Origin: Patescibacteria group bacterium UBA2196
GTDB taxonomy: Bacteria; Patescibacteriota; Patescibacteriia; UBA2196
Length of the DNA: 64,000 nucleotides
NCBI GenBank assembly: GCA_002328025.1
Contig: DCVE01000003.1
Coordinates: forward strand, 17,222 to 81,221
Reading direction: 5' to 3'
Both the position numbers and the translations under genes were made by a program. The notes under the pieces are model-generated. The model did not search any database, was not told the origin of the DNA, and saw nothing but the letters and a program-made list of their open reading frames with translations. This document shows, in pieces, positions 8,388-62,643 of the stretch; within the stretch, counting starts at the first letter, position 1, and every line of letters begins with the position of its first letter.

Positions 8388-8957
8388 TTATATCATCTCC
8401 ACTCCTGGCAATGTTAACTGAAGCGGATTAATTCGACGGATTATATCAAACTGCGCATCATAACAATACACGGTGTTATCTATGAAATAAAATTCGTCAT
8501 CGGGATAATTAATATCCACAGCCTCCCGATGATAAAGATTATAATCCCAGGCCATACCATCCTGAGAAATATCACCGTATCCGGGTTTTTGTCTTGCCCA
8601 TTTTAGGCTTTGGGGTAGCGGAGTAATAAAATACCAACACACAATTACTTCCACCCCCAGATCCCTGAGCAATTGGACATAATTTTGACGTGTTTTTTCA
8701 TATCCATTCCAGACGTCAAAAATTATTTTCGCATTTTCCCCAGCAGAGCCAACAACTTCTCTTATCTGCTGGTTAAAAAAATCGTGGGCTACATCGCCCA
8801 TGCCAGAATACGGGTCAAAACCGACAGTACCGTATTCTTTTAAAAATATTTCATCCCTGTCAAGCACCAAAACTTCTGGATTGGTGCTTTTAACTAACTC
8901 CACGTAGGTAGACTTTCCTGAACCTCGTGGACCGGATGTCAAATACACTATCTTCAT
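8388..8957 (-). CDS. P-loop NTPase, predicted kinase (AAA_33/Pnk-like)
   Basis: Walker A TSGPRGSGKST near the N-terminus, then LVLDRDE. Confidence 0.55.
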   Translation of the reverse strand: MKIVYLTSGPRGSGKSTYVELVKSTNPEVLVLDRDEIFLKEYGTVGFDPYSGMGDVAHDFFNQQIREVVGSAGENAKIIFDVWNGYEKTRQNYVQLLRDLGVEVIVCWYFITPLPQSLKWARQKPGYGDISQDGMAWDYNLYHREAVDINYPDDEFYFIDNTVYCYDAQFDIIRRINPLQLTLPGVEMI

Positions 8958-20555: not shown

Positions 20556-20630
20556 GGCGCCATCGTCTAATGGTCAGGACACCAGGTTTTCATCCTGGTA
20601 ATCGGGGTTCGATTCCCCGTGGCGCTACCA
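20556..20630 (+). tRNA. tRNA-Glu (TTC)
   Basis: GGCGCCATCGTCTAATGGTCAGGACACCAGGTTTTCATCCTGGTAATCGGGGTTCGATTCCCCGTGGCGCTACCA; anticodon loop TTTTCAT; CCA encoded. Confidence 0.85.
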
Positions 20631-20655
20631 AAACAATAAGAATTATTATATTTAA

Positions 20656-20771
20656 TCTAACAGGTTTTTCCGCCTAAGGCGGACCCGCCTCTAGCGGGCA
20701 TCCTGGTAATCAGGGTTCTCCACCTAAGGTGGATCCGCCTCTAGCGGAAATTTCCACCCGTGGCGCTACCA
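20656..20771 (+). pseudogene. tRNA-Glu-derived pseudo-copy carrying two 30-nt GC-rich double-hairpin insertions
   Basis: 25 bp downstream of tRNA-Glu, the sequence TCTAA-CAGGTTTT[ins1]CATCCTGGTAATCAGGGTTC[ins2]AATTTCCACCCGTGGCGCTACCAAAAA reproduces the tRNA from the D-loop remnant to the CCA end. ins1 is TCCGCCTAAGGCGGACCCGCCTCTAGCGGG (20669-20698) and ins2 is TCCACCTAAGGTGGATCCGCCTCTAGCGGA (20719-20748). The acceptor 5' half and D-stem are missing. Confidence 0.5.
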
Positions 20772-20826
20772 AAAATATCCCTAACTAAATCAGGGGTATT
20801 TTTGTTTTATAAATATCTTTTATGTT

Positions 20827-47264: not shown

Positions 47265-47615
47265 CTAATATGTTTTTCTCAAGGTTGAAGAAATTCTGTT
47301 AAAAATAAGAACTAATTCATGAGCTTCTTTCCACAAAACTCTCAACTTGTCTTTTATTTCTATATTAGTTGTCACTAAAAGCTCAATCCAATATTCTGTT
47401 TCTTGAGCCTCTCGACGACAAATGAAAATTTTACTGGAAAAATCTTTTCTGGATGATGCGCCATTTACTTCTCTATAGTTTGCCCCAATACTGGTTGCTG
47501 AACGCAACAATTGATTGATTATGTTTCTATTTAAATCTGATATTTTTATTTTTGAAATTTCTTCAATCACCGCTTTACCAAATCTCTTTGTCCTTTCTTC
47601 CAAATCATAATTCAT
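47265..47615 (-). CDS. four-helix-bundle protein (TIGR02436, 23S rRNA intervening-sequence protein family)
   Basis: LRSATSIGANYREVNGASSRKDFSSKIFICRREAQETEYWIELL matches the family signature (RAavSi.aNIaEG..r.s.kdf..fl.iArgS..E...wl.l). Confidence 0.8.
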   Translation of the reverse strand: MNYDLEERTKRFGKAVIEEISKIKISDLNRNIINQLLRSATSIGANYREVNGASSRKDFSSKIFICRREAQETEYWIELLVTTNIEIKDKLRVLWKEAHELVLIFNRISSTLRKTY

Positions 47616-47672: not shown

Positions 47673-48464
47673 TTACTTGAGTGATTCCTGAAAAACCCGC
47701 ATCAAAGTTGTGTCATCAATTTGATTCAACTGTTCTTCCGTCATCTGTCCGCTGGAAAGTAATAACTCTCTAACTTGCGCCACAGTCAATTGTTTTAATT
47801 GTGCTTTTTCCTCGTCAGTCAAATCAACCGTCGTGGTAACCGCAGACCCTTGATTTAAATTTTCTATATCCAGCGGTGAAGCAATAATGTTTTCTACCGT
47901 CGTTACGGTTGTTGTGTCAATGGCACGACAATTTTCTCCAGTTGGACACAACGGATCATGTTCTGAATCAATTTCCTGTTTGTCGGTATAACCATCCGAA
48001 TCAGTATCGGCTAAATAGGGCGAAGTGCCATAAACAAATTCTTCATCAAAATCACTCAAGCCATCCTGATCTGTATCAATGTTTTTTTTATCCACCAAAG
48101 CCTGTTCGGTTATGGTGCTATTTGTAGTATTAACAACTGTATTTTGCTGTTGCGCCAAAAAAGGGCTGGAGATGCTGTGAAATAAATTTAAAAAAGCATA
48201 CCCAAGCGTCCCAAAACCCAAAATAACCAAAACCAAAAACATAACCTTGTGATTTCTGCTATTTTTAACATTCATTTGGACATTGGCGCCACCATCTTCG
48301 TGCCACTCATCATCATTATTATTTATTTTATCATATATACCGTCATTCATCATATTTTTTTCAGCCAAAGCAAAATTTTGAACGCCGTTTTCATCGCTCT
48401 TCAGTCTTTGGTTTTCCATTTTGTCCAAGACACTATTTTCTTGCTCAAAATCTTGATAAGCCAT
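47673..48464 (-). CDS. bitopic membrane protein with thrombospondin-type-3-like Ca-binding repeats
   Basis: central TM; DTDQDGLSDFDEEFVYGTSPYLADTDSDGYTDKQEID repeats, similar to the C-terminus of the 1634-2968 product. Confidence 0.55.
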   Translation of the reverse strand: MAYQDFEQENSVLDKMENQRLKSDENGVQNFALAEKNMMNDGIYDKINNNDDEWHEDGGANVQMNVKNSRNHKVMFLVLVILGFGTLGYAFLNLFHSISSPFLAQQQNTVVNTTNSTITEQALVDKKNIDTDQDGLSDFDEEFVYGTSPYLADTDSDGYTDKQEIDSEHDPLCPTGENCRAIDTTTVTTVENIIASPLDIENLNQGSAVTTTVDLTDEEKAQLKQLTVAQVRELLLSSGQMTEEQLNQIDDTTLMRVFQESLK

Positions 48465-48537
48465 GAAAATATTTATTCACTTTTACAACTATATTATACC
48501 AGAAAATAAACAAAGCGCCAAAACTTATATCAAAGGC

Positions 48538-49485
48538 TTAAAATATAATTTCCCGCGTCAGATCCACCCAATTTTTAACAGTCAAATTTTGCGCCCGAAC
48601 TTTTTCATCCAAACCAATTTTTTGTAAAATTTCTACCACCTTCTGCATCTCAATTTGCAAACCATTGGCCAAATTATTTTTCAACATTTTTCTCTTGGCG
48701 CTAAAACCAATTTTTACTAATCTCATGAATTCTTTGTTTTCATCCCCTCCTTTATAAGGAGGGGTCTCATGCCCTGCTAAGGGCAGAGGGGGAGGTATTT
48801 TTTTAACTTTGAGTTTTATTATCACACTATCCACTTCTGGCGCTGGCCAAAAACAATTTCTAGAAACCTGAGCCACAATTTCACAATCAGCATAAAACTG
48901 ACACAGCACAGACAAAATACTCATCTGACCAACTTTGGTACAAATTCTTTCACCCACTTCTTTTTGCAACATCAAAACCATCAAATCGGGCCGCACCAGT
49001 CTCCCTCTTGATAAGGGAGAGATACAGAGGGTGTCAGTATGTAAAAATTTCCACAAAACTTGGGTGGAAATTGAATAAGGTAAATTGGCAATAATTTTAT
49101 AATTTTTTTGCGCCACCTTCTCCTCTCTCCCCCTTAATAAAGGAGCGAGCGAGAGGGGGTCAATTTTCAAGGCATCTGCGTTAATAATTTCCAGATTATC
49201 CCTAGTTGTCAGTTGTTTTTTATTTAATGTTAAATATTCTGCCAAACGCTTATCTTTTTCTATAACGACCACCTGACCGGCATGTTTAAGTAATTCTTGA
49301 GTTAAAATTCCCAAACCCGGTCCAATTTCTAAAATCAAATCGTCTTCTTTAATTTCTCCAGCAGTAACCACCTTCTGCAAGACATTTTTATCAATCAAAA
49401 AATTTTGCCCCATTTGTCTGCTGGGCTTAACATTTAACTTTTCACAAACTTTTTTAATCTCCGGAGCTGTAAAATTCATAGACAA
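48538..49485 (-). CDS. rsmA: 16S rRNA (adenine1518/1519-N6)-dimethyltransferase with three short in-frame insertions
   Basis: GQNFLIDKNVL, SAM-binding ILEIGPGLG, NLPYSIST, C-terminal FSAKRK. About 315 aa against ~270 typical; the extra peptides coincide with GC-rich palindromic DNA. Confidence 0.85.
   Translation of the reverse strand: MSMNFTAPEIKKVCEKLNVKPSRQMGQNFLIDKNVLQKVVTAGEIKEDDLILEIGPGLGILTQELLKHAGQVVVIEKDKRLAEYLTLNKKQLTTRDNLEIINADALKIDPLSLAPLLRGREEKVAQKNYKIIANLPYSISTQVLWKFLHTDTLCISPLSRGRLVRPDLMVLMLQKEVGERICTKVGQMSILSVLCQFYADCEIVAQVSRNCFWPAPEVDSVIIKLKVKKIPPPLPLAGHETPPYKGGDENKEFMRLVKIGFSAKRKMLKNNLANGLQIEMQKVVEILQKIGLDEKVRAQNLTVKNWVDLTREIIF
48744..48795. repeat. GC-rich palindromic insertion 1 inside rsmA/ksgA
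   Basis: CCCCTCC-TTTATAA-GGAGGGG and GCCCT-GCTA-AGGGC hairpins; encodes PPPLPLAGHETPPYKGG in frame. Confidence 0.5.
48988..49035. repeat. GC-rich palindromic insertion 2 inside rsmA/ksgA
   Basis: TCTCCCT-CTTGATA-AGGGAGA hairpin; encodes ISPLSRGRLVRPD in frame. Confidence 0.5.
49111..49161. repeat. GC-rich insertion 3 inside rsmA/ksgA
   Basis: CTCCTCTCTCCCCCTTAATAAAGGAGCGAGCGAGAGGGGG; encodes DPLSLAPLLRGREEK in frame. Confidence 0.45.
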
Positions 49486-49547
49486 ATTGCTTATTTTATT
49501 TAAATAAAATATACTATAGATAAAATTAAATATTTAATCATACAAAT

Positions 49548-49886
49548 ATGAATTGGCCAATTATTATTCTCATAATTACTCAATTACTTTTTACAACCAG
49601 TGATCTCTTGGCTAGAAATTATATGCCTAAACAGGGTTTTGCATTAACAACTTTTTTAAGTAGTTGGTTTCTAGCATATTTTTTTATAAGAATTATTGCC
49701 ATGTTCGGCCAACTTTATGTTTTTACCCACATAGAGCTAGGCAAAACCATGGCTCTCTTTGGTGCTGTTTCAATTATTTTGGCTAATCTTTTAGGTTTTT
49801 TATTATTAAAAGAATCTATGTCTGTTGGTGCCTACATAGGTATAATGCTAGCAGTTAGTGCTTTTATTGTTTTGGCATTAAATTAA
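49548..49886 (+). CDS. small four-TM membrane protein (DMT/EamA- or SMR-like)
   Basis: 112 aa, four hydrophobic helices. Confidence 0.45.
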   Translation: MNWPIIILIITQLLFTTSDLLARNYMPKQGFALTTFLSSWFLAYFFIRIIAMFGQLYVFTHIELGKTMALFGAVSIILANLLGFLLLKESMSVGAYIGIMLAVSAFIVLALN

Positions 49887-59106: not shown

Positions 59107-62100
59107 TTATAAAACAATACTCACCAATTTTCCTTTTATATAAATAATTTTCTTAGGCTCTTGTCCATTTAGCCATCTCAAAACTTTTTCATTTTCCAAA
59201 ACTAATTTTTTAACTTCTGCTTCACTAATTTCTGTTGGCACTAGAATTTTCTCACGCACCTTACCATTAATTTGAACAACCAATTCAAATTCATCAGCTT
59301 GAATTAATTGCGGATCATATTCTGGCCAGTTTTCAAAAGTAATTGATTTCTCATGCCCCAAAATTTGCCACAATTCTTCAGCGATGTGTGGCGCAAAGGG
59401 CGACAAGAGAATAATGAATAATGAATAATGAATTATGGAAATCTCTTCTTGTTTTTCCAACTCATTTAATAAAATCATTAATTGGCTAACAGCTGTATTA
59501 AATTTCATCTCTTCAATATCTTCGCCAACTTTTTTTATGGTCTGATTTAAAATAATTTCTAAATTTCCATTTTTGTGTTCTGTTGTTTGAGTATTGAATT
59601 TTTCCTGTAAATTCCAAACTCTATTCAAAAACCGATACATTCCATTAACACTTTTATCTTCCCAAGCAATTGGTTGATCAAATGGTCCCATAAACATTTC
59701 ATAAATTCGCAAAGTATCAGCCCCATATTTTTTTACATACTCGTCGGGGTTAATAACATTGCCCTTGGACTTACTCATCTTGACTCCACCTTCGCCCAAA
59801 ATCATGCCGTGCGCTGTGCGCTTAGCATATGGTTCCACTCCACATTCTTTTGGTACTGCGCCAATATCATACAAAAATTTCCACACAAATCTGGAATACA
59901 AAAGATGCAGAGTGGTATGTTCCATCCCACCATTATACCAATCTACTGGCAACCAATATTTGGCACGCTCCGGATCAACCATCTGTTTGTTATTTTTTGG
60001 ATCAGTATAGCGAATAAAATACCAATTTGACCCAGCCCAATTAGGCATGACATCAGTTTCTCTTCTGGCTTCACCACCACAGACCGGACATTTTGTCTTT
60101 ATCCAACTTTCTACTTTAGCCAATGGTGAATCGCCTTCGTCTGTTGGTAGATAATCATCAATGTCTGGCAACACAATTGGCAAATTTTCATCCACATGCC
60201 AACCATAATTTAAAATCTCTCCCATATTTGATTCTTCAATAATTTTATTTAACAATTCAGGAAATTCATTCGTGCCCATATCATCAAAAACAAAGTGTCC
60301 TTTATGAAATTCAATTATTTCACCGCCCAAAGTTTCGTGCACTTTTTTTGCACTATTAATAATGTACTCGTCATCATTGTCTGAATAAAAAACCACCAGA
60401 TCATTAAAATAATTTTTCAATGATGAATCGAATTCAAAGTCTTTCAAATGACTATCAGACTCATATTTACCCGATTTTATTATTGATGGCGCCAACAAAA
60501 TCACCTTACCAACTTTTTTCTTATTTTCGACCAGCCAACGCAAAATAAAAGCAGTGCCAGCACTGTGACCGATTAAAATAGTATTTTCATTTATTTCATT
60601 TTTTTCAAAAACACTCTTCCATGCCTCATAATCGGGCATCCAGTCATTTGGGTAAAGTTCATTCGATGTTTTTATGCCAGTCTTTTCCAAATTCTCTTTA
60701 AGCCACGGTTTCCAATGTCGCAAATTTTCCGCCGGTTCTTCTTTTGCTTCTTCTTCTGACGTATTTGAACCATGCACAATTATACAATTCTTATTTGATT
60801 TTTTAATAGCATTTTCAATTAATTCACTCTCCTCTGCACATTTCTCACAATACACCATCGGGATCGGCTCACCCCAATATCTTTGCCTGGAAAAAATCCA
60901 GTCATGCAGTTTGTATTGAATTTGTTTTTTACCAATGTTTTTTTCTTCCAACCATTTTGTCATTTTAATAATCGCCTCGCTCGGTTTTAATCCATTTAAA
61001 AATTCCGAATTAACCATCACGCTAAAAGCGGTATCCACAAAAGCATAATTTTTTCGCAAAAATCTTTCTATGCCGATGGTGTTATAGGAATGGGTCATCT
61101 GTTTAATGGCCTCGTTCCTGTCCAGCCAAATAACTTCATGTTTTACATCTTCCGCTTCATCAAGCTCTTCTTTATTTTCATCAATTAACTCCAACAATAC
61201 CGGCTGATCAAATCGTTCGCGCCAGACATTTTTATTATCAGCGAAAAAATGCGACTCAACTTCTCCACCTAATCTTTCTAACGCCCTAACTCTGTATCCT
61301 GTTTCTTCAAAAACTTCTCTTTCAGCAGCCTGTTCTGGCGTCTCGTCGCCATCAATACCGCCTATAACTGGGGCAATCCAATTAAATTTTTTCCATTTAA
61401 TCAACAAAAATTTTTCATCTTTTTCATTATAAACAATGGCAGAAATAGTCCTTCGTGATTCCTCGTCATCATGCGGTTCACCAAATACAGGTCGAATTAC
61501 ATCAACGACCGGCAACGAATATTTATGCGCAAATTCAAAATCTCTTTCATCATGTGCCGGCACAGCCATAATGGCGCCTGTGCCATAACTCATCATCACA
61601 TAATCCGCCACAAAAATGGGAATTTCTTTATTATTGACAGGATTAATGGCTTTTATACCTTTCAATTCAACGCCAGTTTTTTCTTTATTCAAATCAGTTC
61701 TTTCTAATTCGTTTTTCTTCTGCGCTTCAATAATATATTCTTCGATTTCCTTACTATTTGTTATTTGCATTTTGAGTTTTGTCAGCAATTCATGTTCTGG
61801 CGCCACCACCATAAATGTCGCTCCAAACAAAGTATCTGGCCGCGTGGTAAATACAACCAGTTTATCGTCATCCCGAGGGAGTGCAACGACCGATGGGATC
61901 CCCCCGCTCTTCTCATTAATATCAGAATTGCCCGGAATAACAGAAAAAACAACTTCTGCTCCAACAGACTTTCCTATCCAATTCACCTGTTGTGTTTTTA
62001 TTCTGTCCAAATAATTTACTGTATCCAAATCTTCAATCAATCTATCCGCGTATTTAGTAATTTTTAAAACCCACTGCTCTTTTATTTTTTTCACCACCTC

Positions 62101-62643
62101 ACCGCCGCATCTTTCACACACACCATTGACCACTTCTTCATTAGCCAAACCAATTTTGCAACTGGTGCACCAATTAATAGTTTCTTTTTTCTTTTCAGCT
62201 AGTCCGTGCTTAAACATCTGCACAAAAATCCACTGTGTCCATTTGTAATACTCTTCATTAGTTGTAGAAAAAGATCGACTCCAATCAAAAGAAAAACCAG
62301 CTTCTTTGAGTTGTTTGGTAAAAGTAGCAATATTTTTGGCTGTGGCTTCTTGTGGTTTTATTTTTTTCTTAATCGCATAATTTTCTGTGGGTAAACCAAA
62401 AGCGTCAAAACCAATAGGGTATAAAACATTATAGCCCCGCATTCTCCTTTTACGACAAATAATATCCATGGCTGTATTGGAACGCAAATGCCCAGTGTGC
62501 AAGCCATCGCCCGATGGATAGGGAAATTCAATCAACCCATAAAACTTTTTTTTATTTATGTCCTCTCTCACTCTAAAAACTCGCTGGTCATCCCAGATTT
62601 TTTGCCATTTAGGCTCTATTTCTTGTGGTTTATATTTTATCAT
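59107..62643 (-). CDS. leuS: leucyl-tRNA synthetase with two inserted accessory domains (Nudix hydrolase; YdeN/RBBP9-type serine hydrolase)
   Basis: class I motifs (HTGHLRS, CP1 editing VPAHDERDFEFA, SRQRYWGEPIP, KMSKSKGN, C-terminal anticodon-binding region). 1178 aa against ~820 typical. Residues ~392-535 contain a perfect Nudix box GGIDGDETPEQAAEREVFEETGY. Residues ~618-815 contain a GHSAG nucleophile elbow in an alpha/beta-hydrolase segment (IIVHG...LIGHSAG...VILLAPS...FYSDNDD...GHF), inserted between CEKC and CPVCGG of the Zn domain. Confidence 0.9.
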   Translation of the reverse strand: MIKYKPQEIEPKWQKIWDDQRVFRVREDINKKKFYGLIEFPYPSGDGLHTGHLRSNTAMDIICRKRRMRGYNVLYPIGFDAFGLPTENYAIKKKIKPQEATAKNIATFTKQLKEAGFSFDWSRSFSTTNEEYYKWTQWIFVQMFKHGLAEKKKETINWCTSCKIGLANEEVVNGVCERCGGEVVKKIKEQWVLKITKYADRLIEDLDTVNYLDRIKTQQVNWIGKSVGAEVVFSVIPGNSDINEKSGGIPSVVALPRDDDKLVVFTTRPDTLFGATFMVVAPEHELLTKLKMQITNSKEIEEYIIEAQKKNELERTDLNKEKTGVELKGIKAINPVNNKEIPIFVADYVMMSYGTGAIMAVPAHDERDFEFAHKYSLPVVDVIRPVFGEPHDDEESRRTISAIVYNEKDEKFLLIKWKKFNWIAPVIGGIDGDETPEQAAEREVFEETGYRVRALERLGGEVESHFFADNKNVWRERFDQPVLLELIDENKEELDEAEDVKHEVIWLDRNEAIKQMTHSYNTIGIERFLRKNYAFVDTAFSVMVNSEFLNGLKPSEAIIKMTKWLEEKNIGKKQIQYKLHDWIFSRQRYWGEPIPMVYCEKCAEESELIENAIKKSNKNCIIVHGSNTSEEEAKEEPAENLRHWKPWLKENLEKTGIKTSNELYPNDWMPDYEAWKSVFEKNEINENTILIGHSAGTAFILRWLVENKKKVGKVILLAPSIIKSGKYESDSHLKDFEFDSSLKNYFNDLVVFYSDNDDEYIINSAKKVHETLGGEIIEFHKGHFVFDDMGTNEFPELLNKIIEESNMGEILNYGWHVDENLPIVLPDIDDYLPTDEGDSPLAKVESWIKTKCPVCGGEARRETDVMPNWAGSNWYFIRYTDPKNNKQMVDPERAKYWLPVDWYNGGMEHTTLHLLYSRFVWKFLYDIGAVPKECGVEPYAKRTAHGMILGEGGVKMSKSKGNVINPDEYVKKYGADTLRIYEMFMGPFDQPIAWEDKSVNGMYRFLNRVWNLQEKFNTQTTEHKNGNLEIILNQTIKKVGEDIEEMKFNTAVSQLMILLNELEKQEEISIIHYSLFIILLSPFAPHIAEELWQILGHEKSITFENWPEYDPQLIQADEFELVVQINGKVREKILVPTEISEAEVKKLVLENEKVLRWLNGQEPKKIIYIKGKLVSIVL

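Follow-up and report, generated by a model that had tools for sequence, protein, structure and literature searches.

The essential ksgA/rsmA gene of the uncultured, ultra-small Patescibacteria group bacterium UBA2196, which encodes the 16S rRNA A1518/A1519 dimethyltransferase, contains three GC-rich segments that can form hairpins, and this raises the question of what such palindromes are and how they come to reside in an intact housekeeping gene. The gene occupies positions 48538..49485 on the minus strand of a 64-kb stretch of contig DCVE01000003.1 (64,000 nucleotides; hereafter, the window). A first-pass annotation likened the segments to Rickettsia palindromic elements (RPEs), which insert in frame into housekeeping genes. 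The likeness held for behavior, that is, for membership in a repeat family, residence in other genes, location in loops, and presence or absence among relatives; by size the segments are not RPEs, and their mobility is something that we infer. We consider it probable that the three segments are copies of a dispersed, short, GC-rich, nested-palindromic repeat, akin to RPEs and to repetitive extragenic palindromes (REPs), which is tolerated in permissive loops and translated as disordered peptide.

GC-rich hairpin segments in ksgA

The ksgA open reading frame (ORF) is intact and open throughout its 315 amino acids. It was identified as KsgA/RsmA from the ORF list, from an alignment, and from matches to the RrnaAD methyltransferase domain in Pfam (PF00398, E 2e-54) and to B. 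subtilis KsgA in the PDB (7v2l, E 4e-35). The true start is likely to be the ATG at 49479, because the relatives begin there, as does a 313-amino acid database twin (P0001). Homologs of the window protein are found in the Patescibacteria, or Candidate Phyla Radiation (CPR). In an alignment with 29 CPR homologs, the KsgA motifs GQNFL, EIGPGLG, NLPY, and RKMLKNNL are unbroken, and the window protein has the invariant residues G55/G57/G59, N134-L135-P136-Y137, and R265-L272. The reading frame is preserved through all three segments, as the first-pass annotation had stated.

The segments, numbered here along the protein, lie where they had been annotated, and each of them folds. They are 53–56 nt in length and 56–60% GC, with 60% at site 3 (48744–48796), 56% at site 2 (48985–49038), and 57% at site 1 (49109–49164), as compared to 32.7% for the remainder of ksgA and 36.6% for the window. 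Only 1.9% of all 54-nt intervals in the window have a GC content of at least 55%.

Site 3 is a composite element located in the inter-domain linker (48744..48796; residues 230–248, IPPPLPLAGHETPPYKGGD). It consists of a main hairpin with a 9-bp stem and a 3-nt loop (CCCCTCCTT-TAT-AAGGAGGGG, 48744–48764), a small hairpin (TGCCCT-GCTA-AGGGCA, 48770–48785), and a tail (GAGGGGGAGGT, 48786–48796); both hairpins were detected as inverted repeats. Site 2 (48985..49038; residues 150–167, TDTLCISPLSRGRLVRPD) has an inner hairpin, TCTCCCT-CTTGATA-AGGGAGA (49000–49020), and an outer arm, AGAGGGTGT (49026–49034; GACACCCTCT on the sense strand). At site 1 (49109..49164; residues 108–126, IDPLSLAPLLRGREEKVAQ), one inner arm is intact (TCTCCCCCTT on the plus strand, 49126–49135) and its partner has decayed (49139–49148). 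The outer arm of site 1, AGAGGGGGT, is at 49152–49160, and the segment forms a long imperfect stem within 49113–49160.

On the sense strand, sites 3, 2, and 1 fold with energies of -28.9, -18.8, and -23.9 kcal/mol, respectively (z -4.1, -2.9, and -2.3 against dinucleotide shuffles); on the plus strand, site 1 folds with -25.4 kcal/mol. Among ~12,800 sliding 50-nt folds across the window (mean -4.9, sd 3.6 kcal/mol), the top two are those at 48741–48790 (-30.2 kcal/mol) and 49111–49160 (-24.2 kcal/mol), which surpass the tRNA genes and terminator-like hairpins of the window in stability. Perfect hairpins composed of a pyrimidine arm and a purine arm occur in the window only within ksgA (five overlapping hits at two loci), as compared to 0.22 ± 0.41 hits in shuffled sequences. 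Among the codons of the inserts are CCC, which makes up 14% of Pro codons, and GGG, which makes up 9% of Gly codons; both are rare. No intrinsic terminator, consisting of a GC-rich hairpin and a T-run, was found on either strand between 48300 and 49700, and an Rfam search of 48400–49600 yielded nothing better than E 0.99. Mimicry of helix 45 or of the anti-Shine-Dalgarno sequence (CCUCCUUA / AAGGAGG in the site 3 hairpin) was considered and found unsupported beyond the purine-rich composition of the family as a whole. An orientation bias, with Pro always preceding Gly, was likewise set aside as uninformative, because a palindrome of pyrimidine arm, loop, and purine arm reads alike on both strands.

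In the protein, the segments at sites 1, 2, and 3 add 5, 12, and 12 residues, respectively, when B. subtilis KsgA is the reference, and 14, 12, and 15 when the shortest of 120 CPR homologs is, in approximate agreement with the 8–13 extra residues first annotated. The distance between the anchors that flank each site varies widely among these 120 proteins: from 8 to 54 residues at site 1 (22 in the window protein), from 7 to 28 at site 2 (19 in the window protein, with the median of 7 being the minimum), and from 10 to 54 at site 3 (25 in the window protein). An AlphaFold model of the window protein has a mean predicted local distance difference test (pLDDT) score of 84 and a predicted template modeling score of 0.83. 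The first-pass annotation had suggested mapping the inserts onto the structure; in the model, the only three segments with a pLDDT <50 are residues 117–125, 152–161, and 235–247, which are the inserts at sites 1, 2, and 3. The inserts are predicted from this model to be disordered loops that leave the core of the enzyme untouched. The elements of KsgA that contact rRNA are loop1, loop12 (R161 and K169), loop14 (R235–K237), and the β6/7 linker (bioRxiv 10.1101/2021.09.15.460497), and by sequence alignment the insert sites appear distinct from these as well as from the catalytic motifs.

In the ksgA genes of other CPR members, these three sites are occupied by GC-rich hairpin families that have no relation to this one (L026, at 8564–8627 and ~8918–8938; L055; L079; and proteins P0101 and P0045). 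The peptides encoded by these families include HPRESGD, IPACAGM, HPELVSGS, CHCEESRPESGRGDEAI, and LRSARNDN. Palindromic repeats in general thus seem to accumulate in the loops of KsgA.

A dispersed family of nested palindromes

The ksgA DNA of the closest relatives was taken genome by genome, the KsgA loci from a scan of contigs having, among the matches listed, at most 45% identity. Three relatives (L001, L004, and L005), whose proteins have 73–78% amino acid identity to the window KsgA, were aligned at the DNA level with the window. This comparison, which the first-pass annotation had called for, revealed differences in the presence of the elements. In L001 and L005, sites 1 and 2 hold a 36-nt unit (GACCCCCTCTnnATCTCCCCCTTATCAAGGGGGAGA) in copies that are identical at 34 of 36 positions, lie in the same frame, and have a perfect 10-bp stem; site 2 of the relatives has the perfect form TCTCCCCCTT-ATC-AAGGGGGAGA. 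L004 is without the site 1 element and has an AT-rich, nonpalindromic stretch in its place (SNEKLLMKGGK). At site 3, L001 no longer has the pyrimidine arm and has acquired 27 nt that include a new mini-hairpin, and L005 has a sister variant (CCTCACCCC-aa-CCCTCTCCT-GGTAA-AGGAGAGGG). The DNA of P0010 and P0014, two alleles from sister samples, is 100% identical except for two synonymous changes just upstream and the patch at site 2 itself, which is 96 nt with two hairpins in one allele and 39 nt without hairpins in the other. The differences in length between alleles are whole codons.

The inner hairpin of the relatives, TCTCCCCCTTNNNAAGGGGGAGA, served as the query for a scan of metagenomes and was found on at least 120 contigs, which range from 27 to 69% GC and come from many habitats. 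The copies form a family, scattered over genomes of numerous uncultured bacteria, whose consensus is a nested palindrome of ~47 nt: ACCCCCTCT-N2-3-TCTCCCCCTT-NNN-AAGGGGGAGA-N2-3-AGAGGGGGT. The 5' outer arm, ACCCCCTCT(T), and its 3' counterpart, (A)AGAGGGGGT, lay outside the search pattern, yet are conserved. By a strict test, both outer arms are present in 18 of 126 copies, one is present in 71, and neither in 37. Conservation stops ~12 nt from the hairpin on both sides, and no palindromic extension into the flanks was found beyond chance. Within the element, the arms are fixed and the loops and spacers hypervariable, with 39 different loop triplets. Sister variants of the family have CCCTCTCC and CCCCTCC. 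In some copies, for instance in L101 (...AGAtgccAAAggcaGAGGGGGT), the inner hairpin is separated from the 3' arm by a second mini-hairpin, an arrangement that site 3 of the window shares; the layout of hairpin, small hairpin, and GAGGGGGT recurs in metagenomic copies such as those of L101 and L118. Multiple copies per contig are frequent.

The consensus comprises four blocks: CCCCCTCT and the mirror image, complement, and reverse complement of that sequence (alignment A3). With this design of mirrored and complementary blocks, a single strand could fold either as a hairpin or as an intramolecular pyrimidine-purine-pyrimidine triplex. An asymmetric T.T mismatch in the outer stem is common to many copies (ACCCCCTCT ... 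AGTGGGGGT).

A covariance model (R1) of 55 positions was constructed from 17 full, unrelated metagenomic copies, each in both orientations. With filters off, R1 matched the three ksgA sites alone in the window, with nothing else below E 3. The best match is to site 2 (full-length, E 0.004), followed by site 1 (full-length, E 0.008); the match to site 3 covers the outer stem only (48739–48769) and is borderline (E 0.9). The copies of the relatives have E values of about 2e-6 to 7e-6. The first-pass annotation had also proposed a search for other copies. The family is present in many other genes in metagenomes. In the window, pattern searches (exact and with mismatches), hairpin scans, and the covariance model all failed to reveal a copy outside ksgA. 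The peptide SSPLEGGDNG of the neighboring TsaC was rejected as a further copy, as it has no hairpin and no R1 hit. When ten loci with canonical copies were compared with Rfam, only tRNA and rRNA reached gathering scores. A viral origin was also rejected, as the hairpin occurs on only 9 of 2.9 million viral contigs. In the literature searched, we found no description of the element or of in-frame palindromes in CPR.

Members of the family reside in frame in other genes. On AT-rich contigs, the hosts are Fmt (methionyl-tRNA formyltransferase), MiaA, the CCA-adding enzyme, LigA (NAD-dependent DNA ligase), CysRS, UvrC, YchF, another KsgA (at site 3), TruB, and a YgiQ radical-SAM protein. On contigs of intermediate GC content, they are CinA, a MiaB-like enzyme, a class Ib tRNA synthetase, HolA, PFOR, a Mur ligase, and PfkB. 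Relative to solved homologs, the element is an insertion of 11 residues in CysRS and 9 residues in MiaA. All three codon phases are used, and the resulting peptides are SPLxRGR, LPLxKGE, or SPPxxGGD. The arms are purely C/T or purely G/A and therefore have no stop codon in any frame on either strand; from this composition, they would be translated as Pro/Ser/Leu followed by Gly/Arg/Lys/Glu. The element occurs in noncoding DNA as well. On AT-rich contigs, 20 of 40 evaluable copies lie within open frames of at least 200 amino acids, as compared to 67% of random positions on the same contigs.

Further arrangements of the element were observed. Tandem arrays with 51-nt and 101-nt periods lie within long open frames or at their ends (L204, 3173–3329 and 9640–9896), and three copies occur in one Lgt-like ORF on a contig that also has a 16S rRNA gene (L161, 327–654). 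A related hairpin, CCCCCCCTT-AGT-AAGGGGGGA, lies in noncoding DNA immediately upstream of ksgA in a cyanobacterial metagenome-assembled genome (L057, 4860–4880; Synechococcales), a hint that this class of hairpin extends beyond CPR.

Origin and maintenance of the hairpins

If the segments are copies of this repeat, as we consider probable, they would land or arise in permissive surface loops, where a stop-free, flexible, and hydrophilic peptide could be translated and tolerated. The copies in ksgA would then occupy three loops of KsgA that are hypervariable in length. Arrival would occur by copy-and-paste at the level of DNA, either through transposition by a hairpin-recognizing enzyme or through ectopic gene conversion, and the copy at site 1 may have been derived from that at site 2.

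Several observations weigh against this explanation. We infer mobility rather than observe it, because neither a target-site duplication nor a clean empty site was found. Direct repeats of 3–5 nt are present at the boundaries of 0–1 of 18 full copies, 2-nt repeats are at about the level of chance, and no conserved target motif was found at copies of the family. No clean pair of filled and empty sites is available, both polymorphisms being replacements or recombination patches; the difference between P0010 and P0014 is a recombinational exchange of a divergent patch, not a clean insertion. In the lineage of the window, the family occurs in ksgA only (three copies in 64 kb, and in ksgA only in the 21 kb of L001), which is odd for an element that inserts at random. 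No transposase was found in the eight neighboring ORFs scanned, no genome-wide search having been made. The age of the hairpins is a further difficulty. In five more distant orthologs (L207, L210, L208, L209, and L211; ~51–62% amino acid identity overall and 57–69% outside the insert zones), a pyrimidine-first hairpin is present at site 2 in all and at site 3 in most, and these hairpins are perfect or near-perfect. L208 shares identical 21-nt hairpins with the window at sites 2 and 3, and the rest of the gene has a synonymous-site identity of 0.46. Rather than being recent insertions, the elements at sites 2 and 3 are old within the clade. A maintaining force, mutational or selective, is required for perfect hairpins of this age, as a neutral old insertion should have decayed.

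Perfect hairpins across near-saturated synonymous divergence pose the question of whether the palindrome is kept by mutation or by selection. The stems of the orthologs differ and stay matched, with TCTCCCCCTT, CCTCCCCTT, CTCCCCCTT, and CCCTCTCCTT at site 2 and CCCCTCCTT, CCCCCCCTT, and CCTCTCCTT at site 3. The orthologs share similar peptides at sites 2 and 3, and the codons are palindromic; shared peptides with nonpalindromic codons had been named in the first-pass annotation as the sign of ancient, lineage-specific loops. Paired cells amount to 92.9% at site 2 and 94.4% at site 3, with changes on both sides of the stem in three and two pairs, respectively. A shift of the partner arm by +2 at site 2 gives 92.9% again, and the covariation test is weakened because the low-complexity arms pair in several registers. 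Quasi-palindrome template switching is an established mutational mechanism, and we favor the view that palindromy would be maintained chiefly by such arm-to-arm correction and by exchange between strains rather than by KsgA function, because the element is dispensable in close relatives and present in many unrelated genes.

A tentative possibility is that an undescribed and widespread palindrome is actively maintained at the nucleotide level in essential genes, either as the recognition site of a hairpin-specific enzyme or through an action of mRNA or DNA as a hairpin or intramolecular triplex. If so, the palindrome would generally give rise to new Pro...Gly surface loops and would be one of the main reasons why CPR housekeeping proteins vary in length, and ksgA would be favored as a host or linked to the element by function.

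Selection on an RNA or DNA hairpin within ksgA itself is a live rival, albeit one we consider unlikely. The hairpins would be functional elements of the ksgA message or gene, acting in transcript stability, in ribosome pausing for domain folding, or in autogenous control by KsgA, and the peptides would be a by-product. Autogenous control of E. coli ksgA, through the binding of KsgA to its own message, was reportedly described by van Gemen et al. in 1989. Nucleotide conservation exceeds what the protein needs, given the 21-nt matches of L208 and the retention of the rare CCC and GGG codons; stems at sites 2 and 3 have compensating changes; and the local folds of the window that rank first and second in stability both lie in these segments. 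What keeps this rival alive in particular is the absence of further copies in 64 and 21 kb, an excess of U.G over C.A cells among one-sided stem changes on the sense strand (9 versus 3, in sequences that are not independent), and the density of pyrimidine-first hairpins, which is 7.5-fold higher in ksgA than in its flanks across ~0.96 Mb of CPR loci, with much of this enrichment contributed by four related genomes. Purine-first hairpins, the control class, are not enriched in ksgA (0.57-fold). Against such selection, the element is also present in many unrelated genes and in noncoding DNA, and copies are missing with no other change at site 1 of L004, at site 3 of L001 (broken arm), and at site 2 of P0014. 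Site 1 of the window itself has one decayed arm, the pairing of C/T and G/A arms is not specific to one register, and inspection of the sequence revealed no likeness to the GGAA tetraloop of helix 45.

It is improbable that no mobile element is involved and that the palindromes were made and perfected locally, by template switching at quasi-palindromes in loop-coding DNA, with hairpins of C-runs and G-runs recurrently favored. Such a process would leave no target-site duplications and would produce polymorphisms that resemble replacements rather than clean insertions, as found here. It is also consistent with the extra mini-hairpins beside the main one (48770–48785, site 3 of L001, and L211), with hypervariable loops and spacers next to fixed arms, and with the unrelated hairpin families at the KsgA sites of L026, L055, and L079. 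However, local switching does not explain a ~47-nt consensus that has outer arms, keeps a fixed spacing, repeatedly shows an asymmetric T.T mismatch in its outer stem, and is shared across unrelated genes and contigs of 27–69% GC, nor does it explain several near-identical copies on single contigs.

More doubtful still is the notion that the segments serve KsgA as adaptive loops specific to the lineage, for instance through additional basic RGR contacts to CPR-specific features of 16S rRNA, and that palindromy is incidental to codons for Pro, Gly, and Arg. Loops of the KsgA family are known to tune substrate recognition (bioRxiv 10.1101/2021.09.15.460497), and the orthologs share SPLSRGR and related peptides at site 2 and PPYKGG at site 3. 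Yet the element is read in three phases to give differing peptides across host genes, rare codons are used despite synonymous AT-rich ones, and the inserts are predicted to be disordered. They are also missing from most CPR KsgA proteins (the median at site 2 being the minimal seven residues), and the sites differ by alignment from the named rRNA-contact loops.

Exceedingly improbable is that the hairpins go untranslated, through removal from the RNA or through the ribosome hopping by which sequence is skipped in the byp elements of Magnusiomyces mitochondria and in T4 gene 60: GC-rich hairpins in AT-rich coding DNA are superficially byp-like, but all three segments are stop-free and keep the frame, alleles differ in length by whole codons, flanking peptides align continuously with those of orthologs, and inspection of the sequence revealed no matched take-off and landing codons with an intervening stop.

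If the repeats truly spread through coding DNA, they would constitute a second, independent, and far wider case of the RPE type, in the largest uncultured bacterial radiation. They would account for the odd Pro/Gly-rich loops and the length variation of CPR KsgA, tRNA synthetases, MiaA, and LigA, and would provide a concrete mechanism for the de novo birth of protein segments. Such inserts also interfere with the alignment, phylogeny, and structure prediction of marker proteins, and R1 can be used to mask or census them.

Neighboring features and comparison with known systems

Between tsaC and ksgA, on the strand opposite to ksgA, is an ORF for a hydrophobic protein of 112 amino acids with no Pfam hit (49548–49886, plus strand). 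In L001, L004, and L005, this ORF is not there and the spacing between tsaC and ksgA is 5–6 nt. A homolog of the 23S rRNA intervening-sequence protein (PF05635, E 1e-14) is encoded two genes downstream of ksgA (47265–47615, minus strand); such a homolog also follows ksgA in L208 and is not present in L001, L004, or L005.

Hairpins of different families were noted elsewhere in the window. A partial, uncalled duplicate of the 3' half of tRNA-Glu(ttc) is located at 20631–20772 (plus strand), just downstream of that tRNA (20556–20630). The duplicate is broken by two small GC-rich hairpin pairs, TCCGCCtaaGGCGGA with CCCGCCtctaGCGGG and TCCACCtaaGGTGGA with TCCGCCtctaGCGGA, which look like hairpin insertions. 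The LeuRS ORF (59107–62643, minus strand; 1178 amino acids) has NUDIX-like and α/β-hydrolase-like inserted segments, and the LeuRS of L207 has hits to PF00561 and PF06821. At 61865–61915, just before the VFTTRPDT motif of LeuRS, a GC-rich imperfect palindrome encodes SGGIPSVVALPRDD and may represent a further case of in-frame hairpin insertion, by a different family.

Among known systems, RPEs are small palindromic repeats of ~100–150 bp that are restricted to Rickettsia. They occur in coding and noncoding DNA, and housekeeping genes tolerate in-frame copies, which become part of the translated protein; the ksgA element behaves alike. It shares with RPEs the trait of in-frame residence, in that its inserts are the only segments of KsgA with a pLDDT <50 and it is likewise an insertion in CysRS and MiaA. 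It differs from RPEs in being GC-rich within AT-rich genomes, in having one pure pyrimidine arm and one pure purine arm, and in belonging to a family found on contigs of 27–69% GC. In R. felis, 85 of 728 RPE copies lie within ORFs (PMC1166351), whereas the family described here has a far larger open-frame share (20 of 40 evaluable copies).

REPs, along with bacterial interspersed mosaic elements and REP doublets forming hairpins (REPINs), which are associated with REP-associated tyrosine transposases (RAYT/Y1), are imperfect palindromes of 20–40 nt that are multicopy, have variable loops, and lack target-site duplications, as is the case for the ksgA element. Adjacent pairs are common among REPs and occur in this family as well (L051, L054, and L118). 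However, REPs are by definition extragenic and species-specific, whereas the three ksgA copies are in coding sequence and half of the evaluable family copies are in long open frames. Most REPs carry a GTAG or CGTC tag at one end (PMC3733652). The family consensus, nnnnACCCCCTCTT...AAGAGGGGGTnnnn, starts with ACCCCC instead and is without either tag.

The GC clusters and hairpin elements of mitochondria are similar in being short GC-rich palindromes scattered through AT-rich genomes, protein genes included. Yeast GC clusters and byps, double-hairpin elements, and the hairpin repeats of sponges are mobile GC-rich palindromes of AT-rich mitochondrial genomes. Hairpin repeats occur in placozoan mitochondrial DNA as well (PMC7813641). 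These elements are organellar, whereas the host here is bacterial, and there is no sequence relationship. Byps are bypassed in translation, whereas ordinary read-through suffices for the ksgA element. The Ripley model of template switching at quasi-palindromes perfects inverted repeats and would need no selection to produce compensating changes like those at sites 2 and 3; it is a mechanism rather than an element family, and leaves the shared consensus at unrelated loci unexplained. Miniature inverted-repeat transposable elements (MITEs) that insert in frame, such as cyanobacterial Nezha and the Correia elements of Neisseria, are nonautonomous repeats that occasionally occur within coding sequences. 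MITEs are 100–400 bp in length and have terminal inverted repeats and target-site duplications, unlike the ~47-nt family of ksgA, for which no duplication was found. Of these systems, it is the RPE that the element acts like, and it is set apart from RPEs by its length (53–56 nt in ksgA and ~47 nt in the family, with a range of 23–55 nt, versus 100–150 bp) and by its Patescibacteria hosts.

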